Both the position numbers and the translations under genes were made by a program. The notes under the pieces were generated by a model. It had not been told where the DNA came from and did no database searches. It worked only from the letters and a program-made list of their open reading frames with translations. This document shows, in pieces, positions 11,772 through 34,846 of a DNA stretch of 64,000 bases. The stretch comes from a virus (lineage: Duplodnaviria > Caudoviricetes): the IMG/VR virus record IMGVR_UViG_3300025084_003138, positions 1,905 through 65,904 of that record; one strand, written 5' to 3'. How positions within the stretch are numbered: the stretch's first letter is position 1; each line of letters starts with the position of its first letter.

Positions 11772-11783
11772 TTATAAAAAAGC

Positions 11784-11791
11784 ATAAATAC
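11784..11791 (+). promoter_or_regulatory. T4-late-promoter-like motif ATAAATAC
   Basis: Identical 8-mer in the short intergenic gap ~22 nt upstream of the 11814 ATG. Confidence 0.6.
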
Positions 11792-11813
11792 ATTATACTA
11801 ACAGGGGTCAAAA

Positions 11814-13373
11814 ATGGCGTATAGCATACAGAAAACAAATGGCGCAACTTTAACAACTATCGCCGACGGTACAGTTGACAATTCAACTGATATAAAACTA
11901 ATTGGTAAAAACTTTGCAGGATATGGTGAAATACAAAATGAAAACTTTGTATTTTTATTAGAAAATTTTGCTGGAGCAAATCAACCACCGAGAGCAATCC
12001 AAGGACAGATTTGGTTTGACAGCGGTGAAAATAAACTTAAATTTTACGATGGCGGAAATTGGAAAACAACTGGAGGTACAGTTACGTCTCCAGCACAGCC
12101 AGTAGGGTTAGCACTCGGCGAATTATGGTTTAATACAGCTGAACAAAAACTATATGTATATAACGGTGTAGACTTTTCCTTCATTGGCCCCCAAGATGCA
12201 GGCGACGGTGTAACACAAATGCAAAGTAAAGAAATTATTGCTACAGATAATACATCTAAAGCAGTGATTGTTTCTATACTTAATGACGAAGAAGTTGCAA
12301 TTTTTAGTAATGATAACTTTACTATTAAAGATATCGGCACACAGTTTGCAGATTATGCCGGATTTGTTGATGCTGGAAGAACAGTTAAAAAAGGTATTAC
12401 CCTTAAAGATAATGATCTAAATGGCGTAAATTCTGACTATTTCTTTTACGGCACAGCTACTAATGCAAATAGTTTAGGTGGATATAGTGCAGCTAGTTAT
12501 GTAAGATCAGATGCAGCAGCCTTTACAGGGTCAGTTAACTTTGATGATAACGGTATTACAATTGGTAATGATCAAGATTTAGGTATTCTTATAGACGGTG
12601 CTGGCGGCAACGAAATTCACTTAAAGGCTTCACAAAGTTTAATAAAACTTACTACATATAACGGTAGTAGTTTTGAAAATATTGCAAGAATTAATAATAA
12701 TTCGATTCAGCCTGGATACGAAACATCAGCAGCCGATCAAGGACCGAGAGACTTAGGTTCTACAGCAAACAAATGGAACGAAGTACATGCTACTAGTTTT
12801 AAAGGTGTTGCAGATAGATCTAAAGAAATGCTTGTAGGAGCAGAAGCAAATGGCGAATATATTACAGCTTCTTATACTTATAATCCGGGTGTTGATGAAA
12901 ATAAAATAGTTGCAAGAGACGACACTGGAAATATTTCAGCAAACGTATTAATTGGTACTGCTTCACAAGCAAAGTTTGCTGACTTAGCGGAAATATATAA
13001 ATCAGAAAACAACGATCTTCCTAACGGAACAATTGTTGGTATTATAGGCGGTGTAGGCAATACAGAAATAGGACCTGCATTTATAAATGGAGCTGAAGGT
13101 TCTGCTGTAATTGGAATTATTAGTACAAATCCAGCATACTTAATGAATGCAGAAGCTGACGGACAAGCGGTAGGACTAATAGGAAGACTACCTACTCTAG
13201 TTAAAGGTATAGGTAGAAAAATGGGAGCTCCTGTTTATCTTAGTGATGAACCAGGAATTGGTACAACTTCGCCAGAAGAAGGAATGTCAGAAATTCGTAT
13301 AGGATATATATTAGAAGAAGATGCAGGCGACTCGGATACTCCGACTCTTGTTGAATGTTTTGTAAAGGTTTAA
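11814..13373 (+). CDS. Tail-fibre-like protein (paralog 3) with C-terminal peptidase-G2-like/intramolecular chaperone-type domain
   Basis: Shared N-terminal module (GKNFAGYGEIQNENFVFLLENFAG..QPPRAIQGQIWFDS); the C-terminus ADLAEIY...GTIV...VIGIISTNPAYLMN...VGLIGRLPTLVKG matches the pattern of fibre-terminal autoproteolytic/chaperone domains. Confidence 0.75.
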   Translation: MAYSIQKTNGATLTTIADGTVDNSTDIKLIGKNFAGYGEIQNENFVFLLENFAGANQPPRAIQGQIWFDSGENKLKFYDGGNWKTTGGTVTSPAQPVGLALGELWFNTAEQKLYVYNGVDFSFIGPQDAGDGVTQMQSKEIIATDNTSKAVIVSILNDEEVAIFSNDNFTIKDIGTQFADYAGFVDAGRTVKKGITLKDNDLNGVNSDYFFYGTATNANSLGGYSAASYVRSDAAAFTGSVNFDDNGITIGNDQDLGILIDGAGGNEIHLKASQSLIKLTTYNGSSFENIARINNNSIQPGYETSAADQGPRDLGSTANKWNEVHATSFKGVADRSKEMLVGAEANGEYITASYTYNPGVDENKIVARDDTGNISANVLIGTASQAKFADLAEIYKSENNDLPNGTIVGIIGGVGNTEIGPAFINGAEGSAVIGIISTNPAYLMNAEADGQAVGLIGRLPTLVKGIGRKMGAPVYLSDEPGIGTTSPEEGMSEIRIGYILEEDAGDSDTPTLVECFVKV

Positions 13374-14420: not shown

Positions 14421-14449
14421 TTGACATTTAGATAGATATAGTATATACT
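14421..14449 (+). promoter_or_regulatory. Sigma70-type promoter TTGACA-N17-TATACT
   Basis: TTGACA at 14421-14426, 17-bp spacer, TATACT at 14444-14449; AAGGAG RBS at 14463-14468 before the ATG at 14474. Confidence 0.8.
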
Positions 14450-14473: not shown

Positions 14474-14827
14474 ATGGACCCTCGTCTTGAAAACGCATTA
14501 TCTTTTGCAAATTATAATCTCACACTCGAAAAAGAAAAACTACAAGCCAAAGAAAATTTTAGAATAGGTAGAGTAATTTATCGAAATAAAGGACAGTTTA
14601 CTATTACAGTTGAACTACTATCTTATTGTAAAATTCTAATTGATTCTGACAACACCGAAGATGTTGTGCTAATAGACGATAATGAAACCCCAATTTTAAT
14701 TGAAGATCTAACAGAATTTTATCAATTAATTTTGTCTCAATATTCGATTGTGTGTAATGATTACTACGAACGTTTTTCTTCATTGTCGAAAAAACGAAAT
14801 GTTGAGGACATAGTGTTTAATGACTAA
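14474..14827 (+). CDS. Hypothetical protein, 117 aa
   Basis: ORF with strong RBS; overlaps the next gene; no recognisable motif. Confidence 0.75.
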   Translation: MDPRLENALSFANYNLTLEKEKLQAKENFRIGRVIYRNKGQFTITVELLSYCKILIDSDNTEDVVLIDDNETPILIEDLTEFYQLILSQYSIVCNDYYERFSSLSKKRNVEDIVFND

Positions 14828-15677
14828 AGGGGTATTATTATTTGCAAATAATAACGAAAGTATAGATTATGTAACGCAAGCATACCAGTTAGCAAAGCGT
14901 ATAAATCAATATTTAAATTTACCTACTAGCATTGTTACTACTGACAAAAATTATCTGCAAAAAACATTTAGCGACTATGATGAAGTATTTGATGAAATTA
15001 TCGAAACTGACCAAGAGTTAGTTAAGAATAATAGAGTTTATCATGACGGTATTGCATCTAATCAAATTCTAAATTTTAGGAATAATCTAAGACCATATGC
15101 ATATGATTTATCGCCTTATGACAGTACTATTGTAATGGATGTTGATTATATTATATGTAGTGATCATCTTTCAAAATGTTTTGATCAAACAGAGGATTTC
15201 CTAATCTACAAAGACGGAACATATTTAGGAATTGACGAAAAATATACAAAAGAATTTAGTTATGTAAGCGACGGTGGAATAGATTTTTATTGGGCTACTG
15301 TTGTTTATTTTGAAAAGACAAAAAAGAACAACGTATTTTTTGAGTTATTAAAACATATACAAGATAACTGGTATCACTATGTACTATTGTATAAACTACC
15401 TAACACAATGTATCGAAATGATTTTGCTTTTAGTATAGCAATACACATAATGAATGATTATGGTTCTTTAGATATGTTTAAAACAATGCCAACAAGTATT
15501 CTATATACTCTAGACGTTGATATATTACATTCTATAAAAGATGATGTGTTAATTTTATTAACTGGAAAACAAGGACATCCAGGAGAATATGTAGCACACA
15601 GGACTCAAGGATTAGATGTACATGTAATGAATAAATTTAGTCTAGATAGATTATACAAAGGAGAACAACATGTCTAA
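14820..15677 (+). CDS. Glycosyltransferase-like protein (GT-A fold, GT8/GT71-like)
   Basis: N-terminal KGVLLFA strand, 'PYAYDLSPYDSTIVMDVDYII' with a DxD motif, 'YWATVVYF', 'RNDFAFSIA', 'HVMNK'; paralogous to 15670..16530. Confidence 0.6.
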   Translation: MTKGVLLFANNNESIDYVTQAYQLAKRINQYLNLPTSIVTTDKNYLQKTFSDYDEVFDEIIETDQELVKNNRVYHDGIASNQILNFRNNLRPYAYDLSPYDSTIVMDVDYIICSDHLSKCFDQTEDFLIYKDGTYLGIDEKYTKEFSYVSDGGIDFYWATVVYFEKTKKNNVFFELLKHIQDNWYHYVLLYKLPNTMYRNDFAFSIAIHIMNDYGSLDMFKTMPTSILYTLDVDILHSIKDDVLILLTGKQGHPGEYVAHRTQGLDVHVMNKFSLDRLYKGEQHV

Positions 15678-16530
15678 GGGTTTTGTTTTTCTTGCTCAAA
15701 ATAACGATACAACTGATTATGTTAAACAATCATATTTGTTAGCATGTAGTATCAAAGCTACACAACACACAAATAATGCAACCTGTTTAATTACAAACGA
15801 AGTAGTACCTGAAGAGTATAAAAAAGTATTTGATCATATTGTAGATATTCCGTGGAGCGATGATGCAAAAGAATCTAAATGGAAAATTGAAAATAGGTGG
15901 AAAATATACCATGCTACTCCGTTTGATGAGAATATTGTATTAGATACAGACATGTTAATTCTAGAAGATATTGAACATTGGTGGAAATATTTAGATTCAT
16001 ATGACTTATATTTTACAACAAATGTTAGAACATTTAGAGATAAACCGATTACTGAAGGATTATGGCATTATAGAAAAGCATTTATTCGATATGATTTACC
16101 AAAGATATATGTTGGCGTACATTATTTTAAAAAGTCCGAACTAGCCCACAAGTTCTATAAATGGTTAGAATTTATAAATCAAAATTGGGAAATGTTTTAT
16201 GGAGAGTTTGCCGGAGGCAATGCTTTTCAAAAATGGGCAAGTATTGATGTAAGTTCGGCAATAGCAATTAAGCTTCTAGGTATTAGTAGTCAAGTTACAA
16301 ATTCAATAAGCGATATTCCGAAATTTGTGCATATGAAAACATATCATCAAGGAGTAAGTAATTTACACAACAGTTGGCAAGGATATGTAAATTCATATAT
16401 GGACGACGAATTAAATTTGAGAATTGGTAATTATAAGCAAAATGGTATATTTCATTATGTAGAAGATAGTTTTGTTACAGATTCTCTAATAGAGAAATAC
16501 GAAGGATATTTAAGTAAAAATGAATTTTAA
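15670..16530 (+). CDS. Glycosyltransferase-like protein (GT-A fold), paralog of the preceding gene
   Basis: 'KGFVFLAQN', 'YHATPFDENIVLDTDML' (DxD), 'YVGVHYFKKS', 'FVHMK', 'FHYVE'; same motif layout as 14820..15677. Confidence 0.6.
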   Translation: MSKGFVFLAQNNDTTDYVKQSYLLACSIKATQHTNNATCLITNEVVPEEYKKVFDHIVDIPWSDDAKESKWKIENRWKIYHATPFDENIVLDTDMLILEDIEHWWKYLDSYDLYFTTNVRTFRDKPITEGLWHYRKAFIRYDLPKIYVGVHYFKKSELAHKFYKWLEFINQNWEMFYGEFAGGNAFQKWASIDVSSAIAIKLLGISSQVTNSISDIPKFVHMKTYHQGVSNLHNSWQGYVNSYMDDELNLRIGNYKQNGIFHYVEDSFVTDSLIEKYEGYLSKNEF

Positions 16531-17116
16531 AAAAGAGTTTTCTCGATTAAATGCACTGTCACATAAAGATCCTAAGTGGTATTGTAATTTTGATAAAAAA
16601 ACTGGAGTAATTTATTCAGTTAAGAATCATAATAACGACAGCGATAGTTACATTACTATAGAGCATACTATGGCACTTGATTTTAATAATAGAAATAAAA
16701 GTTTAGACGATTATCAGATAGTTTGGAATAAAGATCAAAAGAAGTACAAACTATTAAAAAAAACAGATACAACAATTGAATCTGTAAAAAACACATTTAT
16801 GGAAATTACTAATAACGAAGTAGGCGAAGTTGTAGTTACTAAAAATTATAAAACTAAAGAGTGGCAATTTTCAGTTGACAACGATGTTAAAGAGCGTTAT
16901 AATAATGGAACAGTAATAGAAGGAGATGCATTGCATTTTAGTGTAACAGCAAAGTGTAACCCGCATATTCTTTATAGAACTATTACAGTTTCGATTGTGG
17001 AATTATTCGAAAATGATGTGAACATTAATTTCGATAATAGTGACATACAACAAACTAATTTTAGTATCTACACTAATAAAAAGATAGACTCGTATGCAAT
17101 TAAAGAGCTTATATAA
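16520..17116 (+). CDS. Hypothetical protein, 198 aa
   Basis: Overlap-coupled ORF within the GT block; no recognisable motif. Confidence 0.7.
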   Translation: MNFKKEFSRLNALSHKDPKWYCNFDKKTGVIYSVKNHNNDSDSYITIEHTMALDFNNRNKSLDDYQIVWNKDQKKYKLLKKTDTTIESVKNTFMEITNNEVGEVVVTKNYKTKEWQFSVDNDVKERYNNGTVIEGDALHFSVTAKCNPHILYRTITVSIVELFENDVNINFDNSDIQQTNFSIYTNKKIDSYAIKELI

Positions 17117-18060
17117 TGGATAATAAATTTAAAATTGTCGACTATGATATTATATATCTAAGTTATGATGAACCAAATGCTGAAAAAAACTATGCAGATT
17201 TGTGTAGTAAAATTCCGTGGGCAAAAAGAGTACATGGTGTAAAAGGTTCAGATGCCGCGCACAAGGCATGTGCAGAATTAAGTGAAACAGATCGTTTCAT
17301 TACAGTAGACGGCGACAACATAATACACACAAAGTTTTTACATAAAGAATATGATCTCAGTTCACATGAAGATACTCATTGGAACAGCAATGTAGATTTT
17401 GATAAGTGTGTAATAAGTTGGACAGGCCGTAATATAATTAATGGTTTAGAGTACGGTAATGGCGGCTTAAAATGTTGGCCTAAAGAGTACGTGTTGAATA
17501 TGCGTACACATGAAAATGCTGACCCTGACAATACCCATGCACAAGTAGACTTTTGTTGGGATCTCCAATATATACAAATGAATACGTGTTACAGCGAAGT
17601 AATGAATAATGCAACTCCGCAACAAGCATGGCGAGCTGGATTTAGAGAAGGTGTTAAAATGGCACTTGATCGAGGAGTAAGGCCTACGCAGGAAGATTTT
17701 CTAAATGGACATTGGAAAAACTTACATATGCTTTGGATATGGATGATGATTGGTGCAGATGTAGAAAATGGACGCTGGGCTATATACGGTGCAAGAGAAG
17801 GTTTGTACAAGACAATGTGTACAGATTGGGACTATGTACAAGTTCGTGACTTTGAATGGCTTAACGACTACTGGAATAGCAAACAATTAGATGAAGATCA
17901 AATGGAACAGGACACAGTTGACCTTGGGTATTCATTAATAGATGAGCTTCAGTTGCCTATCGCAGCTGATCCTCTTAACGGAACTCAAAGTTTATTTTTT
18001 AAAACAGTATATCAAACACCTGAAAGACGAAAACAAGATCTTTTGATTGAAAGTACATGA
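17116..18060 (+). CDS. Glycosyltransferase-like protein (GT-A, DGD motif)
   Basis: YDIIYLSYDEPNA...RVHGVKGSDAAHKACA...FITVDGDN...YGNGGLKCWP...AWRAGFREGVKM; clearly homologous to the C-terminal domain of 28945..31560. Confidence 0.6.
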   Translation: MDNKFKIVDYDIIYLSYDEPNAEKNYADLCSKIPWAKRVHGVKGSDAAHKACAELSETDRFITVDGDNIIHTKFLHKEYDLSSHEDTHWNSNVDFDKCVISWTGRNIINGLEYGNGGLKCWPKEYVLNMRTHENADPDNTHAQVDFCWDLQYIQMNTCYSEVMNNATPQQAWRAGFREGVKMALDRGVRPTQEDFLNGHWKNLHMLWIWMMIGADVENGRWAIYGAREGLYKTMCTDWDYVQVRDFEWLNDYWNSKQLDEDQMEQDTVDLGYSLIDELQLPIAADPLNGTQSLFFKTVYQTPERRKQDLLIEST

Positions 18061-19469
18061 CAGATAATATTAAAGGTGACGAAGTAACTCTACTTAATGG
18101 AAAATATAAAAGTGTATATTTTGAAAGTAGTAAAGAAGTACTTGACGGACTTAATAGCGTAAGTCCTAGTTTTTGTTTGGCTAAATGGTATAATGTAAGT
18201 ATACACATTCCAACTGGTCAAACACATAGCTGTTATCATCCTCCAACACACAAAATACCGTTAGATGAATTAGCAAAATCTGCCGATGCCCTGCATAACA
18301 CAAAACATAAAAAAGAACAGCGTAAAAAAATGCTTGCAGGAGAGCGTCCTAAAGAATGTGAATTTTGTTGGGCAATTGAAGATCAAGGCAATATTAGTGA
18401 TCGTGCGTATCGTAGCAAGGATGTGTATCAACCGGGAATGTTAGAACAAGCCCTAACTGACGAAAATCCTAAACCTAGATATGTAGAAGTTAATTTTAAT
18501 CAGGCATGTAATTTAAAATGTGCATATTGTAGTCCGCACTTGTCAACAGAATGGCATAAAGAAGTAAAAAAACACGGGTCGTATAAACTTGCTGACAAGG
18601 AACACAATCATCCAAATTGGGTTGATAGTTTAGGTATTAATAATGCTCCTGATAGTCCTTATGTACAAGCATTTTGGGAATGGTTTCCTGATATATATCC
18701 TACACTTACAACATTTCGAATGACAGGCGGCGAGCCTTTAATGGATAAAAATACGTTTAAAGTATTTGATTACGTAAAACAAAATCCTAATAAAAATTTA
18801 CACCTAAGTATTACTAGTAACTGTTCACCTCCAAAAGGTCAATGGGGTAAATTTATGACTAGTCTAAAAGAAATAACAGATGCAGATGCAATTGATCATT
18901 TTATGTTATTTTGTAGTTTAGATAGTTGGGGCGAGCAAGCTGAATACATTCGTAACGGACTCAATTTTGAGGATCTTTACAAAAATATTACACAATACCT
19001 AAGAGAAAGCTCGAAGCACAGTTTAACATTTATTGTAACTGCTAATTTATTAAGTTTACCTGGCTGGACTGAATATATTAAAAATATTCTTAAACTGCGT
19101 CAAGAATTTAATACTGATCGTCAGCTAATTTGGTTTGATACTCCTATGTTACATGACCCTAAATGGTTAAGTATGAAGTTAGCAAACAAAGAAATGTTAC
19201 AACCTTTGTTAGATAGCATTGAATTCATGGAGTCTAATAAAGAAACTACTAACAACAGATTCAAAGGGTTCAAAGATTATGAAGTTGATAAAGTCAAAAG
19301 ACTGTATAATTGGGCAGTTGAACCATTAAATACACAAGAAGAGTTTTTAGCTAAAAAGAATTTTGATTTGTTTTTTACACAACATGATACTAGACGAAAT
19401 ACTAATATAAGAAAAACGTTTCCAGAATTAACAACCTTTATAGAAGAATGTAGGATAATAAATGAGTAG
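18057..19469 (+). CDS. Radical SAM enzyme with N-terminal twitch (half-SPASM) domain
   Basis: N-terminal CLAKW..SCYH..CEFCW Fe-S ligands; CxxxCxxC = NQACNLKCAYC; MTGGEP; CSLDSWGEQAEYIRNG. Confidence 0.9.
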   Translation: MTDNIKGDEVTLLNGKYKSVYFESSKEVLDGLNSVSPSFCLAKWYNVSIHIPTGQTHSCYHPPTHKIPLDELAKSADALHNTKHKKEQRKKMLAGERPKECEFCWAIEDQGNISDRAYRSKDVYQPGMLEQALTDENPKPRYVEVNFNQACNLKCAYCSPHLSTEWHKEVKKHGSYKLADKEHNHPNWVDSLGINNAPDSPYVQAFWEWFPDIYPTLTTFRMTGGEPLMDKNTFKVFDYVKQNPNKNLHLSITSNCSPPKGQWGKFMTSLKEITDADAIDHFMLFCSLDSWGEQAEYIRNGLNFEDLYKNITQYLRESSKHSLTFIVTANLLSLPGWTEYIKNILKLRQEFNTDRQLIWFDTPMLHDPKWLSMKLANKEMLQPLLDSIEFMESNKETTNNRFKGFKDYEVDKVKRLYNWAVEPLNTQEEFLAKKNFDLFFTQHDTRRNTNIRKTFPELTTFIEECRIINE

Positions 19470-20817
19470 AGATAAAAGAGTTGATGCAGTTGCCGAACGG
19501 TTAAACAACATCGGACCAGGGTTTTGTACACAGAAATGGTTACATGAAACATTATATCTGCATACAGGTGACAATCACAGTTGTTATCATCCAAGGCCTC
19601 ATCATATTCCTTTAGATGAAATTGCAGAAGACCCAAGTGCATTACATAATACTAAATGGAAAAAAGAACAACGTAAAACAATGCTAGAGGGCGGTAGACC
19701 CGACGAGTGTTATTACTGCTGGAATATTGAAGATCTAGAGGGCGAACATTTAAGTGACAGACATTTTCATAGTGCTAGTTCTTATTCAGAACCAATAATT
19801 GAAGAAGTAGCAAAATTACCTTGGGATCAACATATTAATCCACGCTATCTAGAAGTTAGTTTTGGGAATGGATGTAACTATCGTTGTGGTTATTGTTGTC
19901 CGCAGGCAAGTACGTTGTGGATGGACGAAATTAAAAAACATGGAAATTATGATCTAACATATAATCAATATGGAATTGAATTTTTAGAGCACGGTACTTA
20001 CTACGGACCTAAAGACGATAATCCGTATATCGAAGCATTTTGGAAATGGTGGCCTAGTTTACGCAAAGATCTACACACACTACGTATTACTGGTGGTGAG
20101 CCTCTTATGAATCCTGGCGCAATGCAATTTTTTGATCTATTAGAAAAAGAACCTGCTCCTCAATTAGAAATCAGTGTTAATAGTAATTTTGGAGTAACTA
20201 CTAATAAACATGATCGTATGCTTAATAGAGTACAAAATTTATTAGATACTAATAAAATTAAAAAGTTTACACTGTTTACTAGTATAGATACTTGGGGACC
20301 GCAAGCAGAATATATGCGTACAGGATTACAGTTAACACATTGGGAACGTAATTTAAAAAAAGCACTAAGTATGGGATTCGAAGTAAGCATAATGTGTACT
20401 TTCAATGTGCTTTGTGTATCTAACTATAAAAGTTTAATGCATAAAATGATTGAATGGCGTGAAGAGTTTGGAAAAAATGCAATTAGATTTGATGTTCCAT
20501 ATCTTAAAGAACCTCCGCATTGGATGATAAACATTTTACCTGAATCATTTATACCATATATGGACGACACATTAAAATTTATTGATGATAATATGGATAA
20601 ATTTAAAGCACAAGAATATGAAAAATTCAAACGTGTAACTAATTATATGAAAACTAATCCTGTTGATCCGCAAAAGATTAAACAAGGGCGTAGAGACTTT
20701 TATAGTTTCTTTGAAGAAAATGACAAACGCCTTGGATTAAATCTATTAGAAGTATTTCCAGAGTACACAGAGTTTTATGAACAATGTAAACAGGTATACG
20801 AGTCTTACGAAGTCTAA
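19462..20817 (+). CDS. Radical SAM enzyme with N-terminal twitch domain (close paralog of the preceding gene)
   Basis: CTQKW..SCYH..CYYCW; GNGCNYRCGYC; ITGGEP; TSIDTWGPQAEYMRTG. Confidence 0.9.
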   Translation: MSRDKRVDAVAERLNNIGPGFCTQKWLHETLYLHTGDNHSCYHPRPHHIPLDEIAEDPSALHNTKWKKEQRKTMLEGGRPDECYYCWNIEDLEGEHLSDRHFHSASSYSEPIIEEVAKLPWDQHINPRYLEVSFGNGCNYRCGYCCPQASTLWMDEIKKHGNYDLTYNQYGIEFLEHGTYYGPKDDNPYIEAFWKWWPSLRKDLHTLRITGGEPLMNPGAMQFFDLLEKEPAPQLEISVNSNFGVTTNKHDRMLNRVQNLLDTNKIKKFTLFTSIDTWGPQAEYMRTGLQLTHWERNLKKALSMGFEVSIMCTFNVLCVSNYKSLMHKMIEWREEFGKNAIRFDVPYLKEPPHWMINILPESFIPYMDDTLKFIDDNMDKFKAQEYEKFKRVTNYMKTNPVDPQKIKQGRRDFYSFFEENDKRLGLNLLEVFPEYTEFYEQCKQVYESYEV

Positions 20818-20883
20818 ATTACCAGTTATTATAATAACGCAAGTGTAAATAAGATATATAACAATAAAGGATGTACAACAATT

Positions 20884-22095
20884 ATGATTGATGATACAAA
20901 TAAACAAAGTTGGTGTGTAAACGCTGAACATGCAATGAGTGGCGACAACACAGGTGAAACTAAAATTTGTTGTATGACACGATTTATGAATAGACGCTTG
21001 TCGATTGGTAGAGAGACTATTCAAGAAAACTTTAATCAACCTGACTTTGTAGAAGTACGTGAAGCACTTGCAAAAGGTGAACGCCATGATGTGTGTAAAC
21101 TTTGTTGGGAAGAAGAAGATGCTGGACGTATGAGTAAGCGATTACGAGATAACGAAAAATATGTCAATATGATCGAACAAGGCGGCAAGCCGTTTAAAGG
21201 ACTTGCTAAATTTGAATTAAATCTAGGCAATCAATGTAATCTTAAATGTAGAACTTGTGGGCCTCATTCGAGCAGTACTTGGCTTAAAGAAAGATTTGAT
21301 AGGCAAGAAACAGATAATTACACCGACTTTAAAGCCTATGCTAAAGAAATGCGCAAGTTTAGTAAATGGTACGAGTCGGATAGTCCGTTTTGGGACGACT
21401 TTGATAACAACTTAGAAAATATTAATCAGTTAGACTTTTATGGCGGCGAGCCGTTTATGAGTGAAAAAATGTGGGGCACTTTAAGAAAAGCAGTTGAACT
21501 TGATTATGCAAAAAATATCGAATTACATTATGCAACAAACTGTACAAAATGGCCTGATGATGTTGAAATACTTAAAGAGTTTAGACATCTAAATTTAAAC
21601 TTTAGTATTGATGGAGTACACGACGGATTCAACTATATGAGATATCCCGGCGATTGGGGCGAAGCAGAAGTAACTCTAAATAAAGCAAGAGAATTTGCAA
21701 AAACTCATCCAGATATACATATGAGTTGGATTATCACATTGAGTACTATTAACATTCATAACTTACCTGAAATAATTGCAGAGTACGAAGAAAAATATAG
21801 CGACTTTGGTATTTTCTTAAACTTAGTACATAGTCCTAAATATTATAACATTAATATTTTACCTGACGGTATTAAAGAAGGAGTTATTGAAAAAATAGAA
21901 TCAATTCCTAAAGACTCGTTTGTTTGGACAAACTATTTGCCAGGAGTAATTCAATATATTAAAAATGGCACTCCGAATATTGGCTTATGGAAACAAGCAA
22001 TGAGAGAAATAAAATGGCAAGATACTTATAGAGAACAATCGTTTAAAGATGTGTATCCAGAATATCATCAGTTAATACAGGATGTTTCTAAATGA
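20884..22095 (+). CDS. Radical SAM enzyme with N-terminal twitch domain
   Basis: WCVNAE..ICC..CKLCW..SKR; GNQCNLKCRTC; FYGGEPF; FSIDG..FNYMRYPGDW. Confidence 0.9.
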   Translation: MIDDTNKQSWCVNAEHAMSGDNTGETKICCMTRFMNRRLSIGRETIQENFNQPDFVEVREALAKGERHDVCKLCWEEEDAGRMSKRLRDNEKYVNMIEQGGKPFKGLAKFELNLGNQCNLKCRTCGPHSSSTWLKERFDRQETDNYTDFKAYAKEMRKFSKWYESDSPFWDDFDNNLENINQLDFYGGEPFMSEKMWGTLRKAVELDYAKNIELHYATNCTKWPDDVEILKEFRHLNLNFSIDGVHDGFNYMRYPGDWGEAEVTLNKAREFAKTHPDIHMSWIITLSTINIHNLPEIIAEYEEKYSDFGIFLNLVHSPKYYNINILPDGIKEGVIEKIESIPKDSFVWTNYLPGVIQYIKNGTPNIGLWKQAMREIKWQDTYREQSFKDVYPEYHQLIQDVSK

Positions 22096-23354
22096 TTAAT
22101 TCTTTTTTCACTTGGGAAAAGTTATCACAAATGCATATCGAATTAACAAATTCGTGTAATGCGGCCTGTCCAATGTGTACACGATTTTTTGGTAATAGTC
22201 CGTTAATTAGACCCGACCTTGAATTAGGACAGATTACTTTAGATAAATTTAAAAAGTATTTTCCTAAAGAAGTAATGGATAAAATGGAAGTAATACTATT
22301 TTGTGGCGTACACGGTGATCCCTGTGTTGCAAGAGATGTTTATGAAATTTGTGAATATATTGCCGAAACAAATCCTAATACTTGTGTAAGAATGAATACA
22401 AATGGCGGAATGCGTAATACAGAATTTTGGTCTAAACTAGGTAAACTTTTTGCAAGTAAAGAAAATGGTCCATGGTCTTGGAGAATTACTTTTAGTATTG
22501 ACGGATTAAAAGATACTAATCATTTATATAGGCGTAACGTTGTTTGGGATAAGTTATATGCAAATGTAAAGGCGTATTTAGATACAGGAGCTCAAGCTGA
22601 ATGGGATTTCTTAATATTTAAACATAACGAACATCAACTACAAGAAGCAAAAGACTTATCAGAAGAACTAGGATTTTATGCATTTGTGCCTAAAAAAGCA
22701 TTAGGTGTAGACGATGGCGGATCTTTACGAAAGATGCCCGCAGTATCAAGGACGGGCGATCTTGAATATTACATTGAGGCTCCTGTTGATCCAAAAAATA
22801 GAAATATTGAAACTCCTATAGGCGAAGAAAAAACAGGCCATTGGCAGTTTGATCCAGAAGATTATAAGCGTTTTAGAAAAAATAGAGAAACGCATAATAA
22901 TTATCAGCACATGATAGATAATGCATATAATGTACTTGCTAAAGAAGACAACACACAATTAGATAGTGCAACAATTAAATGTAAAGCAAAAACACGACAA
23001 GAAGGTATTGAGATTTTTGTTGATAATTTTGGAAGAGTAATGCCGTGCTGCTACGCAGGCACTCATTTAGTTGGAACACACGGTGACGGTCAAAGTTTAC
23101 AGTTGCATTATGAAACACAAAAATACGGATGGGAAAAATTTGATCTTGAATTGCATTCTTTAAAAGACATAATGCAGCAAGGTCATTTAGATAGGTTATA
23201 TACCGACTCGTGGTCAAAACCTAGTTGCGGCGATGGTAAAATGGCATACTGTGCAAATATCTGCGGTACTTACAGTAGAGTAGATAGAATTTGGACACAC
23301 GAAGATATGACAGATAAATCCCGTAATTGGCGAAAACCAGCGACTCATGAATAA
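22092..23354 (+). CDS. Radical SAM enzyme with C-terminal twitch/SPASM domain
   Basis: TNSCNAACPMC; FCGVHGDP; FSIDG; C-terminal IKCKAK..VDNFGRVMPCCY..CGDG..YCANICG. Confidence 0.9.
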   Translation: MINSFFTWEKLSQMHIELTNSCNAACPMCTRFFGNSPLIRPDLELGQITLDKFKKYFPKEVMDKMEVILFCGVHGDPCVARDVYEICEYIAETNPNTCVRMNTNGGMRNTEFWSKLGKLFASKENGPWSWRITFSIDGLKDTNHLYRRNVVWDKLYANVKAYLDTGAQAEWDFLIFKHNEHQLQEAKDLSEELGFYAFVPKKALGVDDGGSLRKMPAVSRTGDLEYYIEAPVDPKNRNIETPIGEEKTGHWQFDPEDYKRFRKNRETHNNYQHMIDNAYNVLAKEDNTQLDSATIKCKAKTRQEGIEIFVDNFGRVMPCCYAGTHLVGTHGDGQSLQLHYETQKYGWEKFDLELHSLKDIMQQGHLDRLYTDSWSKPSCGDGKMAYCANICGTYSRVDRIWTHEDMTDKSRNWRKPATHE

Positions 23355-24477
23355 AGATACTTTTTGCGCACTTCCATTTACTGAAATTTTTTTATACCCA
23401 AATGGGGATATAAAACCTTGCTGTTCAGCAGTCATGTCTCTTGGAAATTTAAATACTAATAACATACAAGATATACTACAATCCGATACTGCTAAAGATG
23501 TTAGACAACATATTCTTGACGGTAAATGGCATCCATTATGCGAACAATGCGAACGTCAGGAGCAGCAAGGAGTTAGGTCTGAAAGACAGCCTGAATATAG
23601 TAATGTACTTAGGGACTTAGAATTAACAAATTCAACTTTTAAACTAGAAAGACTTGATTTAAGATGGAGTAATACTTGTAATCTAAGTTGTGTTTATTGT
23701 TATGAAGGCTTTAGTAGTAAGTGGGCAAGTATTAAAGGCATTCCGATTAATGATGTTAAGAAAACTGGTGAAGAAAGTTTATTAGAACTTATTAAAGAAA
23801 ATACAGAGTCAGTTAGTACAGTTATGTTATTAGGAGGTGAACCTCTTTTACAAAAACAAAACTCAATTCTAATTGATATATTACCTAATGTCAATTTTTA
23901 TTGTTTAACTAATCTATCAGTACCGATGAAAACTAATAAAATTGCACAAAAATTAATGGAAAGAGGATCGTGGTCACAATTTGGTGTTAGTATAGAAACT
24001 GTCGGAGATCGATTTGAATATGTAAGACGTAATGCTTCCTGGGACCTGTTTACAGATAATGTAAAATATTTTAACGAAATAGGCAAACCGTTAGAGGCAC
24101 ACTCTTTATACTCTATATATTCTGCATTTAATTTAGTTGAATTTTATGATTTTATATTAGAACATAAGTTTCTTAATATATTTTGGAACTTGTTGGAAAG
24201 TGCAGGCGAAAACAGCAAAGCAAGTGTATTTAGATTACCTAAAAAACTTAAAGATAAAGCAATACAGGAAATTGATCGCTGCGCTGAAAAATACAAAGGC
24301 GAAATTGGGATACACCATTTAGAAGGTTATAAAAATAATTTAGTAAATCAAATAGATAATGAATCTACAACAGAATATCACTTAAATGAAATTAAATCAT
24401 TAGAGCTACTGCAACCATATAATAAAACATTCTCGGATGTTTGGCCTAAGTTATATAAAGGTTTAGTAAAATGTTAG
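23347..24477 (+). CDS. Radical SAM enzyme with N-terminal twitch domain
   Basis: FCALPFTE..GDIKPCC..CEQCERQE..SER; SNTCNLSCVYC; LLGGEP; VSIETVGDRFEYVRRNASW. Confidence 0.9.
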   Translation: MNKDTFCALPFTEIFLYPNGDIKPCCSAVMSLGNLNTNNIQDILQSDTAKDVRQHILDGKWHPLCEQCERQEQQGVRSERQPEYSNVLRDLELTNSTFKLERLDLRWSNTCNLSCVYCYEGFSSKWASIKGIPINDVKKTGEESLLELIKENTESVSTVMLLGGEPLLQKQNSILIDILPNVNFYCLTNLSVPMKTNKIAQKLMERGSWSQFGVSIETVGDRFEYVRRNASWDLFTDNVKYFNEIGKPLEAHSLYSIYSAFNLVEFYDFILEHKFLNIFWNLLESAGENSKASVFRLPKKLKDKAIQEIDRCAEKYKGEIGIHHLEGYKNNLVNQIDNESTTEYHLNEIKSLELLQPYNKTFSDVWPKLYKGLVKC

Positions 24478-25364
24478 TTTATTGTAATGGTGATAGTTTT
24501 ACAGCCGGAATAAGTCTTTACGATTATGTTTTACCTAAATATCTAGGACCAATGACTAAAAAACAAATTAGTAATTCTAGTAAAAATATTAAATATTTTC
24601 AAAAAGTAAAAGATATGTATGATTGCAAGTATGTAGATTACAAATCTATAAAAACTATCAATAATACTAACCTTGAATTTTTTGATGATAAACGCCTCGG
24701 AGCAGTACAATACAGTGATGTAAAACATATTTTAGAAAAACAATTAGCATACCCTGCACAACTAGAAAAAGTTGATAAAACTATAAAAACAATCAATGCT
24801 GCAATTGCAGGAGCAAGTATTACAGGCATAATATATAGGACTATAATAGACTTATTAGATTTTAAAGCAGCAGGACAGAAAATACATAGAGTAGTTATAC
24901 AACTTACTTCCGCAAGTCGAGGTGAATTTTTTTCATCAATCGGGCAAAACTTAATGACAGACAGGCCACTCACACATTTTAATGATCCTGATCACCGTAG
25001 AATATCAAAACTTGTTGCAATAACACATACTGACGAAGATTTTATGATAAAGTACCTTTATACTGTTAGTATGTTAAAAGAAGTTTGTCTAAGCATAACT
25101 GGTAAATTACCTGTAATAATTGATTCCTATAACGGAACATTTTTTGATCCTGTTGTAAAGAGATTAGACAACACAATTAAAAACGATAATCCTAGCGAGT
25201 ACAATCAATTTGAAAAAATATTAGAACATTCTATGTACAATATTTGGAATAATAACTTTATGAAGAACATTGCTGATACAGTTAAAAGACCTTTAGAACA
25301 CGATGAACATTATGCATTAACAGTTCATAAAAAAGCCGCAGCAGAATTGGTTGAGTTATTATGA
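24471..25364 (+). CDS. SGNH/GDSL-like hydrolase or acyltransferase
   Basis: Block I 'VYCNGDSFTAG', 'NAAIAGAS', C-terminal 'EHDEHY..VHKKAA'. Confidence 0.55.
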   Translation: MLVYCNGDSFTAGISLYDYVLPKYLGPMTKKQISNSSKNIKYFQKVKDMYDCKYVDYKSIKTINNTNLEFFDDKRLGAVQYSDVKHILEKQLAYPAQLEKVDKTIKTINAAIAGASITGIIYRTIIDLLDFKAAGQKIHRVVIQLTSASRGEFFSSIGQNLMTDRPLTHFNDPDHRRISKLVAITHTDEDFMIKYLYTVSMLKEVCLSITGKLPVIIDSYNGTFFDPVVKRLDNTIKNDNPSEYNQFEKILEHSMYNIWNNNFMKNIADTVKRPLEHDEHYALTVHKKAAAELVELL

Positions 25365-26089
25365 AAATTTGGGCATATGGAGACAGCTTTGTGGCAGGTG
25401 ATCAGGATATAAAAGGCAGAGTTGATGCTATACCAGAATACCAAGACTATAATAGATACAATGTTAGCTTTTCGTCAGTTCTTGCAAAAAAATTAAATTG
25501 TGAGTTAACAAACAGAGCTGTAAGCGGATGTAGTAATTTTTCTCAAATAGATAAACTTATTGAAGATTCGAAACATATTGAGTCTGATGATATTGTATTG
25601 TTTGGTATTACTAGTTTTTATAGAGATAGGCCAAAAATATCTGTATACTTTAAAGATTTAATACCTAAAACACAAGGACCGGCTCTAGGCGATAGAGAGT
25701 TATTACTTAATGGTGATCTTGCAGTAATTGGGTCGTATGATATTTTTTATACTCTAAGTATTATTGACTCTATTGAAAAAATAAAAAATATTAAGATTAT
25801 AAAATTTAATGCATTTCATAATTTTATGGATGACTGTAATATAAAACATTTAATGAAGTTTAATAATTTTATAAGTTTACATCAACCGTCAAATACGTTG
25901 ATAAATTTATTAGATAATACTTGGGGAAAGATTGATGGAACAAATTTTGTAGATCACAGTAAATGGTCTCCTCCGGAAAAGTATCGAGAGAATTTTACAA
26001 GACAATCTCATCCTAGTATAATAGGACATAAAAAAATAGCAAATTGGCTATACAAGGTATTGAAACATGATTATAACTATTCCATATAA
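25361..26089 (+). CDS. SGNH/GDSL-like hydrolase or acyltransferase
   Basis: 'IWAYGDSFVAG', 'NRAVSGCSN', C-terminal 'SHPSIIGHKKIANWL'. Confidence 0.65.
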   Translation: MKIWAYGDSFVAGDQDIKGRVDAIPEYQDYNRYNVSFSSVLAKKLNCELTNRAVSGCSNFSQIDKLIEDSKHIESDDIVLFGITSFYRDRPKISVYFKDLIPKTQGPALGDRELLLNGDLAVIGSYDIFYTLSIIDSIEKIKNIKIIKFNAFHNFMDDCNIKHLMKFNNFISLHQPSNTLINLLDNTWGKIDGTNFVDHSKWSPPEKYRENFTRQSHPSIIGHKKIANWLYKVLKHDYNYSI

Positions 26090-26891
26090 CTGGTGCAAAG
26101 GTTTAGGTACACAAATCGGTGTAATAAGCGCCATTGCCGATTCTAAGTATACTACAATTAAGTTTTTAGAAAAAACAGATGAATACAAAAATTTTAAATT
26201 TTTTGTAGAGTATTATAATTTAGATTTAGAAATCGTATTAGATAAGCCTACCGACGACGATCAACAAATATTCTTCGATGACTTTTCAAAATTATTTTCA
26301 CCCTATGTAAACAAAGCTACTGATTATAAAAATAATAAGTATATATGTATCAGTATGTATCAAGATCTAACACAATGCTTATTTGATAGTGAAATTATAC
26401 AATATCCGTACAATAAAATGTATACAATAGATCAATACTCGAAAATTTTTGAAATTGTACGGCAAAATGGGTATGATGTAATAACAATGGATTCTAAAGA
26501 TATTACAATACCTGAAAAGTTAGAATTATTATCAAATTGCCGAGCAGTTATAGGATATGAAGGCGGCATAGCACATCTTTGTCATACATTAGGATTGCCT
26601 TTTATAATGCTTCCGTGGCGAGCGTTAAATACAAAACACCCAAGTTTATTAGAACTTTTACATCTAGATAAAAAAACGTATTTTTTAAAAAGTTTAAAAG
26701 AATTATTATGGATGGATACTGAAGAATTTTCCAATATATTAGAGCAGTTAGATAATAATAATGGAAACAATACATTGATGGGCACACGGTTTAATAAAGA
26801 AGAATGGAAAGCTCACGAACTACCTATAAGTTCGGATGAATATAATTTTTTTCCAAGACATAATAAATTAGGCGGAATATATAATATATAA
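26067..26891 (+). CDS. Putative GT-B glycosyltransferase (GT9/heptosyltransferase-like C-terminal motif)
   Basis: 'LELLSNCRAVIGYEGGIAHLCHTLGLPFIML' resembles the GT9 motif (l..adl.vg.DSG..HlA.A.g.P.v.l); N-terminal 'KGLGTQI' resembles GT9 'GLGD.V'. Confidence 0.45.
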   Translation: MIITIPYNWCKGLGTQIGVISAIADSKYTTIKFLEKTDEYKNFKFFVEYYNLDLEIVLDKPTDDDQQIFFDDFSKLFSPYVNKATDYKNNKYICISMYQDLTQCLFDSEIIQYPYNKMYTIDQYSKIFEIVRQNGYDVITMDSKDITIPEKLELLSNCRAVIGYEGGIAHLCHTLGLPFIMLPWRALNTKHPSLLELLHLDKKTYFLKSLKELLWMDTEEFSNILEQLDNNNGNNTLMGTRFNKEEWKAHELPISSDEYNFFPRHNKLGGIYNI

Positions 26892-26908
26892 TATAAAGGA
26901 AATAGATC

Positions 26909-28906
26909 TTGGATAACGAAATTGGTGATTTTGACGACAAGCACTTAGCTGTTATGGAAGCTATACTTCCTTACGCTAAATCTAAACCTCAGAAAAATCT
27001 AGAAGAATTACAAATAGAAAATATAACACGAAACACTTCTGTAAGGTTTTTCTTATTGCCTGAATGGGCACCTAACTTTCCTCCTTATAATTTAGCAAGA
27101 TTGGTTTCTGTGTGTAAAAATGCAGGATATAAATCTGATGCAGTTGATTTAAATATCAAAGCATATCGTCAATGGGAAAAGTGGAATTTAGAATTTAATC
27201 CGTGGCACGGAAGTCAAGAATGGCGCTGGACAGGGCAGTCTTATCACGATTCAATTCATGCACATTTAGCACCGTTATTAGAAGAATATATTACTGCAAT
27301 TGAAGAAGATAATATTGATGTAGTAGGATTCACTTTGTATTATTGTAATCAAGAACCTACACAATGGATGGCAGAACAAATAAAATTAAAATATCCACAT
27401 GTTAAAATACTAGTGGGCGGCCCGCAATGTCATACATTTCCGCCAGGAGAAGAACAATGGTATTACGATTACGTGGTATCAGGCGAAGGCGAGCAAATGT
27501 TGCTTAGAATTCTAAGTCAAATTGAAAAAGACGAAGTTAAAGAAACACAACAAGTATTAACACAACCTCCTGGTATGAGACTTAATTTAGATACTATGCC
27601 GATGCCTGACTACAGTTCGTTTGATATACACGAATACAATATGCCAAACGGAGTTAATACTGAATTCAGTCGAGGCTGTGTTGCTAAATGTGTGTTTTGT
27701 AGTGAGACACACTTTTGGAAATTTAGAGGGCGGTCGTCTAGTAGTTTGTTAAACGAAGTCCTTACACTCAATGAACGTTATGGTATAGATTTTATTTGGT
27801 TCCTTGATAGTTTAGTAAACGGTAATATTAAAGAATTAAGAGCTTTTTGTAAAGGTATAATTGCAAGTGGAATAAAAATTGCCTGGACAGGATATGCTAG
27901 ATGTCACAAAGCAATGGACGAAGAATATTTTGATGATCTAGCTGCAAGCGGATGTAAACATCTTAACTATGGAATCGAATCAGGATCAAATAAAGTTCTT
28001 GAAGACATGGACAAAAAAATTACTGTAGATGTTATTGAGCGTAATTTAGAACTTGGGCATAATGTTGGAATACAAGCACAAACTAATTGGATAGTAGGTT
28101 TTCCTACAGAAAAATTACAAGACATATACGAATCGATGACACTATGTCATCGTAACAGTGATTATTTACAAAACGTAGCTACTGGTCATGGATTCACTGA
28201 ACCGCCAGACACTATCATATCACAAAATTCAGCAAAATATGATATGCTTAGATCTTACTATTTAGACAACTGGATCAATACTGATTTTACTAGTTCTAAA
28301 TTACATCGTATGCTTAGGATCATATATTTTAATATTTTATTAGAACAAACTGTAAGTTATGATAACGAAAAAACATTGCAAAATTTTGACACTACTCGAT
28401 TTTGTTCAGTACAGTTTAAAACAGATAAAAATATTTCAGTTGAATATGAAGATTTTGATTTTGATATAATCAATAGTGGACCGAGCGATTTTGCAAATAG
28501 TTTAATGAACGAAGTATGGCCTCTATTAAGACTATTTTGGAGATCAAGAGGAGCATTTAGTGCATCCTTTAACATTGATCCCAAAGATACATATTCAGTA
28601 TTTGGAAATAGACTTGCAGGTGATGTATCTATGACCGGAACATTCAAAATTAGTGAGACAGGAAACTTTGTTGCAAAATTCCAGTATGCATACAAGCAAC
28701 CGGAAGATGCTTGGAGATACGTTGACTTTTCTAACGAAACTTCGATAGCAGCACAAAATGCACGTATGCAATCGATTCCGGGTAACAAAGGAGAAGTTGT
28801 TTCAAATTTTGAAGAAAAGCGTCATAAGTTTCTAAAGGACCTAGATGAACATCGAAAGATTGATTTTACTTTTGACAAAAGAATTTTAATAAAAGGTTCT
28901 TGGTAG
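26909..28906 (+). CDS. Cobalamin-dependent (class B) radical SAM enzyme, probable methyltransferase
   Basis: B12-binding region (FPPYNLARL...DVVGFT...KILVGGP...VVSGEGE) followed by EFSRGCVAKCVFC, GIESGSNKVLEDMDK and WIVGFPTE; TTG start with AAGGA RBS. Confidence 0.85.
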   Translation: MDNEIGDFDDKHLAVMEAILPYAKSKPQKNLEELQIENITRNTSVRFFLLPEWAPNFPPYNLARLVSVCKNAGYKSDAVDLNIKAYRQWEKWNLEFNPWHGSQEWRWTGQSYHDSIHAHLAPLLEEYITAIEEDNIDVVGFTLYYCNQEPTQWMAEQIKLKYPHVKILVGGPQCHTFPPGEEQWYYDYVVSGEGEQMLLRILSQIEKDEVKETQQVLTQPPGMRLNLDTMPMPDYSSFDIHEYNMPNGVNTEFSRGCVAKCVFCSETHFWKFRGRSSSSLLNEVLTLNERYGIDFIWFLDSLVNGNIKELRAFCKGIIASGIKIAWTGYARCHKAMDEEYFDDLAASGCKHLNYGIESGSNKVLEDMDKKITVDVIERNLELGHNVGIQAQTNWIVGFPTEKLQDIYESMTLCHRNSDYLQNVATGHGFTEPPDTIISQNSAKYDMLRSYYLDNWINTDFTSSKLHRMLRIIYFNILLEQTVSYDNEKTLQNFDTTRFCSVQFKTDKNISVEYEDFDFDIINSGPSDFANSLMNEVWPLLRLFWRSRGAFSASFNIDPKDTYSVFGNRLAGDVSMTGTFKISETGNFVAKFQYAYKQPEDAWRYVDFSNETSIAAQNARMQSIPGNKGEVVSNFEEKRHKFLKDLDEHRKIDFTFDKRILIKGSW

Positions 28907-28909
28907 TTC

Positions 28910-28938
28910 TTGACAAAATATTAATTGTGTAGTATAAT
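28910..28938 (+). promoter_or_regulatory. Perfect sigma70 consensus promoter TTGACA-N17-TATAAT
   Basis: TTGACA 28910-28915, 17-bp spacer, TATAAT 28933-28938; the ATG lies only 6 nt downstream at 28945. Confidence 0.85.
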
Positions 28939-32477: not shown

Positions 32478-33988
32478 AAATATTTTCAGTTGCCGTAAAT
32501 ATACACGACCATAACACATACGACGGTAAATTACACTATCAAGTTGAACGACATAATCGTGTTAAACATAATTTAAATCCTAATAACCCGCATGATTCGG
32601 AACCCAGTCGTGAGTTTTTTCACAAACACTTTAGACCTAATTATGATAATAAAGATCACATGCTTGCATTTACTGTTAGTAATCTTGGACAGGAATTTGT
32701 TAGAGATATATTAGAAGAAACTATAGGCAATTTAGAATTTTTAAATTTTAAACCTAACAACTTATGGGATTGTTACGAAACAGCAGATTATTATTATATA
32801 GATCATCATCAAAGCCATTCGGCGTATGCTTATCTAAGTTCTGGATACAACGAATCTGACATCCTTGCGATTGATGGAAGAGGATGGCAATTTAATTGCA
32901 TCTTTACAGATAAGAACGGAAACATCACAGACTTATCAAATAAAATATCCATAGGCGGATTATGGAATAGATTAGCACAGGATATCGGTTTTGGATATTT
33001 AGGTGCAGGTAAAGCAATGGGCCTTGCCGGATACGGCAAATTCAATGCAGATATAAACAGTATGATAGATGAGTATATGCGCAATCCAAACCATAAACTT
33101 CCTAAGTATGCATACGGTCTTATTGAAACAGTACCAAAAGAAGATATTGCATTTACACTACAACACTATACTTCTATACTAATTAAAGAACATGTATACC
33201 CGTTAAAAACATCTAATAATCTTTGTGTAGCTGGCGGAGTTGCATATAACGGATATATGAACGAAGAGTTTACTAAGCATTATGATAATGTATATGTGCC
33301 TCCGGCTGTCGGCGATGAAGGCCAAGCATTAGGCACTTATATGCATGCCGAGTATGTACTTAATAACAATACACATGTACCTAATGTATATTCTGGTAAG
33401 GAATACGCTGTAGATGCATCTGTGCTTCGAGATTGTACATATAGCTCAATGAAGTTTGAAAATATTATTATTGAAATTGCTCGAGAAATTGCTAAAGGAA
33501 AAATTGTTGGATGGTTTCAAGGTAAAAGTGAAAGCGGTAATAGAGCATTAGGTAATCGAAGCATACTTGCTGACCCGAGAAATCCTAAAATTAAAGATAT
33601 AATAAACAGCAAAATTAAACTACGTGAAGACTTTAGGCCATTTGCACCAAGTGTACTTGAAGAACATTACAAAGACTATTTTGATACTAATCAGCCTAGC
33701 CCGTATATGAGTCGTATTATGCCAGTTACGTCAGATAAAATTCCAGGGGTAACACATGTAGATGGAACAGCACGTATACAAACTGTATCAAAACAACAAA
33801 ATGAAAAATATTATTCCTTAATTAAGGAATTTGGAAATTTAACTGGAATACCTATGTTGCTTAACACTAGTTTCAACAGTCAAGAGCCGATTGTAGAAAC
33901 TCCTGAAGACGCTATTGCTACGTTTAACAAGTGTGGATTAGACATATTAGTAATTGGCAATTATATAGTAAGGAAAACAAATGATTGA
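32474..33988 (+). CDS. Carbamoyltransferase (NodU/CmcH/TobZ family)
   Basis: Kae1-like HHQSHSAYAY, IDGRG, GKAMGLAGYG, AGGVAYN, VPPAVGDEG; YrdC-like GKSESGNRALGNRSILADP, REDFRPFAPSV, THVDGTARIQTV, LLNTSFN. Confidence 0.95.
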   Translation: MKIFSVAVNIHDHNTYDGKLHYQVERHNRVKHNLNPNNPHDSEPSREFFHKHFRPNYDNKDHMLAFTVSNLGQEFVRDILEETIGNLEFLNFKPNNLWDCYETADYYYIDHHQSHSAYAYLSSGYNESDILAIDGRGWQFNCIFTDKNGNITDLSNKISIGGLWNRLAQDIGFGYLGAGKAMGLAGYGKFNADINSMIDEYMRNPNHKLPKYAYGLIETVPKEDIAFTLQHYTSILIKEHVYPLKTSNNLCVAGGVAYNGYMNEEFTKHYDNVYVPPAVGDEGQALGTYMHAEYVLNNNTHVPNVYSGKEYAVDASVLRDCTYSSMKFENIIIEIAREIAKGKIVGWFQGKSESGNRALGNRSILADPRNPKIKDIINSKIKLREDFRPFAPSVLEEHYKDYFDTNQPSPYMSRIMPVTSDKIPGVTHVDGTARIQTVSKQQNEKYYSLIKEFGNLTGIPMLLNTSFNSQEPIVETPEDAIATFNKCGLDILVIGNYIVRKTND

Positions 33989-34799: not shown

Positions 34800-34846
34800 T
34801 ACATCTTACCATATATAGTGTAAATTCTAAATTTGTTTTTAATACA

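Follow-up and report, generated by a model that had tools for sequence, protein, structure and literature searches.

Among twitch-type radical S-adenosylmethionine (SAM) enzymes, the prototype is BtrN, the butirosin 2-deoxy-scyllo-inosamine dehydrogenase (PDB 4M7T and 4M7S), whose substrate resembles a sugar and whose pathway also includes a DegT-family aminotransferase. The twitch module of BtrN lies at the C-terminus, as does the auxiliary-cluster domain of the SPASM/twitch maturases SuiB (5V1T), SkfB (6EFN), CteB (5WGG), anSME (4K36-39) and ChlB (9GM3), which frequently carry an N-terminal RRE and have a cognate precursor peptide; BlsE (7VOB) and DesII (8HZV) act on nucleoside- or nucleotide-linked sugars. 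Proteins with an N-terminal twitch module (N-twitch) are catalogued as NCBIfam NF033640 ("N_Twi_rSAM, twitch domain-containing radical SAM protein"), and in the literature no paper was found that describes this family or tests any member. Here, an array of five radical SAM genes, R1 to R5, is analyzed in a 64,000-nt window of DNA from an uncultured marine tailed phage (Duplodnaviria; Caudoviricetes), positions 1,905 to 65,904 of IMG/VR record IMGVR_UViG_3300025084_003138. The window is most of a 65.9-kb contig (~33% G+C) with a CheckV completeness of ~18%, which points to a jumbo phage with a genome of roughly 350 kb.

Family assignment and domain order of the array

The five genes are consecutive, intact open reading frames (ORFs) on the plus strand at positions 18057-24477 of the window (Table 1), exactly where the original prediction, made from the sequence alone, had placed five successive radical SAM enzymes. 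Neighboring genes overlap by 4-8 nt, the sole exception being R2 and R3, which are 66 nt apart with nothing but a ribosome-binding-site-like AAAGGA in between. No terminator-like sites above chance were found inside the array. A promoter scan returned 110 matches compared with 103 expected from shuffles, i.e. not above expectation; sigma-70 consensus promoters (11-12 of 12 positions) were seen at 14421-14449 (before g117), 16875-16903 (within h198) and 28910-28938 (before the gene for an 871-aa protein). A megablast search of the 6.4-kb array against GenBank phages gave no match.

CxxxCxxC is present in all five proteins, GGEP in R1, R2, R3 and R5, and an invariant HGDP in R4, which bears out the expectation of an intact CxxxCxxC and a GGEP-like motif in each. 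Scored against PF04055 (Radical_SAM; cut-off, 29.5 bits), R1 (29.7 bits), R2 (38.5 bits), R3 (32.6 bits) and R5 (52.1 bits) were at or above the cut-off and R4 (24.7 bits) was below it. The array was assigned to the radical SAM superfamily on these motifs and Pfam scores and, for R4, on its structural model, which matched radical SAM cores at Z 14-17. For NF033640 (cut-off, 170 bits, full length), R1, R2, R3 and R5 matched the model from end to end and above the cut-off (221-322 bits) and share the N-terminal four-cysteine module, CxxxCxxC and GGEP; R4 scored 50.8 bits over the core only and is not a member. The original prediction of four N-twitch enzymes was therefore right for the array and too low for the contig, where two members on the opposite strand bring the total to six; the window also carries several other radical SAM genes beyond the array. 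The same prediction had described N-twitch proteins as a family of unknown function and had pointed to an unusual KW...SCYH signature in R1 and R2. The family is the one catalogued as NF033640, and the signature is real and confined to the R1 and R2 clades (it is present in 132 of the 276 N-twitch ORFs from related loci). Because architecture and family were already catalogued, the array is a further member of a biochemically uncharacterized family; what sets it apart from NF033640 generally is that its members stand in a five-gene array, together with the non-member R4, inside a phage island of ~40 kb.

The four N-terminal cysteines are invariant in all six paralogs of the window and across 57 aligned sequences, namely R5 orthologs and four window paralogs. 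Pfam SPASM matched R5 residues 7-69 at 43.9 bits and R3 residues 18-75 below threshold; R1 and R2 gave no SPASM match, and their modules were located from the NF033640 alignment and the conserved cysteines. In the AlphaFold2 model of R5 (predicted local distance difference test score (pLDDT), 92.4), a β-hairpin (residues 13-16 and 21-23) lies between the first two cysteines and a helix (residues 63-73) bears the CxxC, which in the model is the twitch layout. When an R5-family profile was searched against PDB sequences, positions 7-75 aligned to the twitch region of BtrN (residues 169-242), a weak match (E 0.009), and positions 106-226 aligned to the N-terminal cores of ChlB, CteB and SkfB. Structural alignments of the R5 model to BlsE, anSME, SkfB, SuiB and DesII began at about residue 86-100 and left the N-terminal module out.

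Taken from sequence and model, this evidence supports a swap of domain order, with the predicted twitch module N-terminal in R1, R2, R3 and R5 and C-terminal in BtrN; on the four invariant cysteines, the NF033640 scores and the profile alignment, the claim that four of the five enzymes carry the module at the N-terminus stands. The four-cysteine pattern C-x17-23-C ... CxxC is common to BtrN and the N-twitch proteins. Unlike BtrN, the N-twitch proteins continue C-terminally into an additional helical region, 80-150 residues long. With the SPASM/twitch maturases they share the core fold and an auxiliary-cluster domain, whereas the C-terminal auxiliary domain, the RRE and the cognate precursor peptide of those enzymes were scored as not found here. 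Every cluster cysteine is invariant in a 39-sequence alignment of R1 orthologs, and those of R2 are likewise invariant. Outside the clusters, R1 orthologs keep C256, C286 and C465, R2 keeps C442 and R5 keeps none, an inequality that hints at differing chemistry.

R4 has the ordinary domain order. Its AlphaFold2 model (pLDDT 89.5) is a canonical core followed by a predicted C-terminal SPASM/twitch-like fold; VIA-align matched it to SuiB (Z 17.1; model residues 7-392 to SuiB 103-425), SkfB (Z 16.2; residues 100-390), BlsE (Z 16.1) and BtrN (Z 14.1; residues 1-250, whole length). Six C-terminal cysteines are conserved in 49 orthologs, Pfam SPASM scored 15.6 bits (sub-threshold), and an R4 profile gave no match to PDB sequences. 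With six conserved cysteines, the auxiliary domain may resemble SPASM more than a minimal twitch, and the description of all five enzymes as twitch-type holds for R1, R2, R3 and R5 and less well for R4. On the minus strand at 40199-41315, an ORF that amounts to a bare radical SAM core (261 aa; 21% identity to R4) follows a separate 115-aa cysteine-rich ORF with a sub-threshold SPASM match; the two together resemble a split relative of R4.

Age, distribution and fusion of the paralogs

R1 and R2 had been described as close paralogs, and this did not hold up: their identity is just 35%. The remaining pairs share 21-25%, and the minus-strand members are 32% identical to each other. Judged by sequence identity (21-35%), the paralogs are old. 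A tree was built of 113 non-redundant N-twitch ORFs, taken from the window and from 80 related loci. In it, R1, R2, R3, R5 and the minus-strand pair fell into separate clades, each with orthologs from many contigs; the R2 clade is sister to R1, and the protein of the Ralstonia jumbo phage RsoM2USA lies at the base of the R1+R2 clade. One orthologous clade per paralog fits the suggestion that retention of many paralogs implies distinct chemistry. Among the N-twitch ORFs of related loci, CxxxCxxC and an N-terminal CxxC are present in all 276 and GG[ED]P in 272. Estimates of dN/dS against orthologs were 0.05-0.3 for R1-R5, rough values since dS was mostly saturated (>1); the least saturated pair, R4 versus L004, gave an omega of 0.08 at a dS of 0.72. 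With these values and all copies intact, the relaxed selection or pseudogenization that the original prediction had named as a reason for doubt was not seen. A complex prediction of R1 with R2 returned a score of 0.00 and is silent on binding.

The array belongs to a conserved cassette. Dozens of uncultured IMG/VR jumbo-phage contigs, up to 282 kb long, keep the order fiber genes, g117-gtA-gtB-(h198)-h314-(rep871), R1-R2-R3-R4-R5, with one to seven N-twitch genes per array in related contigs. RsoM2USA has the conserved core and R1 only, as its single N-twitch gene. Orthologs of R1 (47-83% identity) occur on >200 viral contigs, and the family as a whole is very large, a profile of the six paralogs matching 6,660 clusters (50% identity level) at E <= 1e-30; the Atlas clusters nearest R3 are 88-100% viral. 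Among 401 Bacteroidota genomes searched, four contain members, one of which carries binned phage contigs. A scan of genome contigs with the R5 alignment found one locus, in phage DNA binned into a Haliscomenobacter metagenome-assembled genome. That genome (loci L082, L085 and L090; G001 contigs C1 and C3) contains two large phage-like contigs with five to six N-twitch genes each, in arrays; a terminase, a RecA-like protein and an endonuclease adjoin the N-twitch match, which suggests binned phage DNA. A relative of the family was also seen in Vibrio phage KVP40 (L083, KVP40.0274-0272) at 134.6 bits, below the NF033640 cut-off; it belongs to a three-gene unit whose other members are a 333-aa protein, at one time annotated PF00534, and a 97-aa ORF.

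Many of the 6,660 clusters are of proteins with more than one N-twitch unit. P0361 (1203 aa), P0362 (950 aa), P0365 and some 30 further representatives hold two or three complete units; in P0362 and P0365 an R1-like unit is joined to an R2-like unit. Unless some are gene-calling artifacts, these multi-unit proteins look like natural fusions of array neighbors, and the R1-like plus R2-like fusions and the other double and triple proteins argue that the copies work together. A survey of fusion partners in 36 long family members found scattered domains (GNAT, S8 subtilase, glycosyltransferase (GT), TPR) and no consistent clue.

Gene neighborhood

The genes that flank the array, and the two further NF033640 members, are listed in Table 1. 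The ~40-kb island that holds the array contains sugar genes: a DegT aminotransferase (E 2e-88), an SDR epimerase, a PfkB kinase with a nucleotidyltransferase (HldE-like), a TobZ/NodU-type carbamoyltransferase and the GT9-like protein; the heptose-type enzymes of the surroundings are HldE/HldD-like. In related loci the neighbors include UDP-glucose/GDP-mannose dehydrogenase, carbamoyltransferase, GT9 and methyltransferases. In one Bacteroidota genome, four N-twitch genes lie between genes for a GDSL-like protein, a fusion of GT2 with a methyltransferase, and a GT22-like protein.

Table 1. Features of the array and its surroundings, in window coordinates
Feature	Position	Strand	Length (aa)	NF033640 (bits)	Remarks
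Upstream core traveling with R1	14474-18060	+			g117, two paralogous GT-A-like proteins, h198, h314
gtA (GT-A-like, paralogous to gtB)	14820-15677	+			Upstream core
gtB (GT-A-like, paralogous to gtA)	15670-16530	+			Upstream core
h314 (DGD-motif, GT2-like)	17116-18060	+	314		Nearest Atlas clusters viral, auto-named "Glycosyltransferase 2-like"
R1, N-twitch radical SAM	18057-19469	+	470	321.6	Twitch C40, C59, C101, C104 (nt 18174-18368); CxxxCxxC C151/155/158 (nt 18507-18530); GGEP at residue 224; KW...SCYH
R2, N-twitch radical SAM	19462-20817	+	451	311.0	Twitch C22, C41, C83, C86 (nt 19525-19719); CxxxCxxC C138/142/145 (nt 19873-19896); GGEP at residue 211; KW...SCYH
R3, N-twitch radical SAM	20884-22095	+	403	286.2	Twitch C11, C29(C30), C71, C74 (nt 20914-21105); CxxxCxxC C118/122/125 (nt 21235-21258); GGEP at residue 187
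R4, radical SAM, ordinary domain order	22092-23354	+	420		CxxxCxxC C22/26/29 (nt 22155-22178); HGDP residues 74-77; C-terminal C297, C319, C320, C379, C387, C391 (nt 22980-23264)
R5, N-twitch radical SAM	23347-24477	+	376	221.6	Twitch C7, C25(C26), C65, C68 (nt 23365-23550); CxxxCxxC C111/115/118 (nt 23677-23700); GGEP residues 163-166
Downstream coupled genes	24471-28906	+			Same genes after R5 in L004, L053, L054, L057, L070
SGNH-like protein, GDS(F) motif	24471-25364	+
SGNH-like protein, GDS(F) motif	25361-26089	+
GT9-like protein	26067-26891	+			GT9 sub-threshold, 20.8 bits
B12-binding radical SAM	26909-28906	+			Pfam B12-binding and Radical_SAM
Two further NF033640 members	34941-40202	-			Flank QueC-like gene and DegT aminotransferase
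QueC-like/N-twitch fusion	34941-37175	-		288.6
N-twitch protein	38964-40202	-	412	278.5

Within the upstream region, h314 and the 871-aa repeat protein (28945-31560) share 29% identity over the final 220 residues of the repeat protein, and in many related loci a protein matching the repeat protein (37-47% identity) stands between h314 and R1. The fiber-like proteins of 571 and 519 aa (10056-13373) are 36% identical over their first 250 residues and then diverge, which fits a shared anchor with swapped distal parts.

One chromosomal N-twitch pair was seen on a 1.46-Mb Bacteroidota contig (L091; G080:C2:1208500-1228400), flanked by two PhyH dioxygenases, a WelO5-like halogenase and a methyltransferase. 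An adjoining 842-aa protein has a Peptidase_S74 fiber-chaperone domain and a type IX secretion system (T9SS) sorting tail, and by analogy the locus parallels the phage pairing of fiber genes with tailoring enzymes.

The gaps of the array were inspected for short precursor-peptide ORFs and, in agreement with the original prediction, none fits. The neighboring genes scanned gave no match to PqqD/RRE, a leader-core pattern is absent from the window's small ORFs, and g117 is conserved over its whole length. The combination of a precursor peptide with an RRE/PqqD-like element that is characteristic of clusters for peptides made by the ribosome and modified after translation (RiPPs) was not found within the 66-kb contig, nor was a 34-35-residue partner peptide seen beside the carbamoyltransferase at 33900-35000.

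Candidate substrates and their alternatives

On the basis of gene neighborhood, we give about an even chance to the combined proposal that R1-R5 are functional radical SAM enzymes transcribed together as one set and that, one after another, they tailor a sugar-based molecule by radical chemistry, a molecule that is probably bound for the virion. The sugar context in the window, in related loci and in one bacterial cluster favors carbohydrate chemistry over protein modification. Each enzyme would hold a SAM-cleaving [4Fe-4S] cluster at CxxxCxxC, and R1, R2, R3 and R5 a second, fully cysteine-ligated [4Fe-4S] cluster in the N-terminal twitch module. The 5'-deoxyadenosyl radical generated by each would then abstract hydrogen at a different position of one shared substrate, presumably a nucleotide-sugar or glycan made by the neighboring GT-like proteins and the heptose, amino-sugar and carbamoyl enzymes of the island. 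With four cysteine ligands the auxiliary cluster would be fully ligated, as in BtrN, which would suit a redox role as electron sink or relay. The outcome could be oxidation, epimerization, dehydration or C-C chemistry, and further decorations could come from the B12 radical SAM, SGNH-like and carbamoyl enzymes. Given the place of the cassette behind tail-fiber genes, the final product would probably be displayed on the virion, on its fibers, a placement that is suggested by position only.

Several observations weigh against a sugar substrate. The evidence for it is guilt by association only; gtA, gtB, h198, h314 and g117 gave no Pfam match and no PDB sequence match, and the neighbors in related loci are mostly other radical SAMs or proteins without a family. 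L091 pairs its N-twitch genes with dioxygenases, a halogenase and a secreted fiber-like protein, not with glycosyltransferases, and the few fusion partners are subtilase, TPR repeats and GNAT. The solved relatives closest in sequence are peptide maturases: ChlB (E 1e-7), and CteB and SkfB (E 1e-5). By fold, BlsE is the top match of the R5 core (residues 86-335; Z 13.7, 215 residues aligned) and also scores high for R4, but for R5 BlsE and DesII tie within 1 Z unit with peptide-modifying enzymes, at 9-16% identity and with no sequence-level family link. In sequence and fold comparisons, the family is equally far from peptide-modifying enzymes (ChlB, CteB, SkfB, SuiB, anSME) and small-molecule enzymes (BlsE, DesII, MoaA, BtrN).

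These matches bear most directly on the main alternative, in which a protein is modified instead, either a virion protein (the phage's own fiber or a different one) or a peptide whose gene lies outside the window, by epimerization, thioether or C-C cross-links, or Ser/Cys oxidation of the kinds known from anSME, SkfB, CteB, SuiB and ChlB. We regard this as unlikely. SPASM/twitch maturases are the best sequence matches of the R5 profile (ChlB, CteB, SkfB and anSME; E 1e-7 to 2e-5) and the best fold matches of R4 (Z 15-17, with SuiB and SkfB at the top), but the E-values are weak, and a bias of the PDB toward peptide-modifying SPASM enzymes accounts for this ranking. The position of the cassette directly behind fiber genes in every locus would suit a protein substrate, as would the bacterial N-twitch pair beside a T9SS-secreted protein with a Peptidase_S74 domain and the rare fusions to subtilase and TPR repeats. 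Against these stand the missing precursor-like ORF, RRE/PqqD domain and leader-core pattern, the conservation of g117 throughout, the abundance of nucleotide-sugar enzymes in the island, and the twitch module itself, which fills the N-terminus where RiPP maturases carry their RRE.

A diffusible small molecule (aminoglycoside-, nucleoside-, heptose-type or cofactor-like) or a host cell-surface glycan, in place of a virion decoration, seems to us an equally doubtful product. The island does contain a Trp-halogenase-family protein, an AMP-binding enzyme and QueC-like ATPases, the fold matches include the antibiotic sugar-tailoring enzymes BlsE, DesII and BtrN, and the known members of the WelO5 family, whose relative occurs in a bacterial locus, act on free small molecules. 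Yet the position of the cassette is constant, behind fiber genes and ahead of another fiber gene with an Mtd_N domain, the invariant partners of R1 are GT-like proteins, and genes for export or resistance were not identified here. Phage DNA or nucleotide hypermodification, e.g. with sugar-bearing or deazapurine-type bases, we hold to be very improbable. Phages glycosylate and hypermodify DNA, and this counts in its favor, as do the island's QueC-like proteins, of which one is joined to an N-twitch unit; the genes linked to the cassette, however, are fiber genes and not replication genes, and no DpdA/TGT, hydroxymethylase or nucleotide kinase was found among the genes scanned, a weak negative given that the contig is only ~18% of the genome.

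Beyond the tailoring of a sugar-based virion component by R1-R5, a bolder idea, which we put forward tentatively and at well below an even chance, is that the arrays serve as a modular toolkit for radical editing. In it, each of the old paralogs would make a different difficult edit (epimerization, deoxygenation, C-C or C-S bond formation) on a fiber-attached glycan or fiber protein, and units would be gained, lost and fused like cassettes, diversifying a surface code for host recognition or evasion. If true, this would be post-assembly virion modification without a characterized precedent.

Up to seven copies in a row, kept under purifying selection beside fiber genes, suggest that the product probably matters for infection. 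Relatives of the family are found in the cultured phages RsoM2USA and KVP40. Naming the substrate would give thousands of proteins a function and make clear with what large marine phages equip their particles; novel radical chemistry on carbohydrates or proteins could also come to light.

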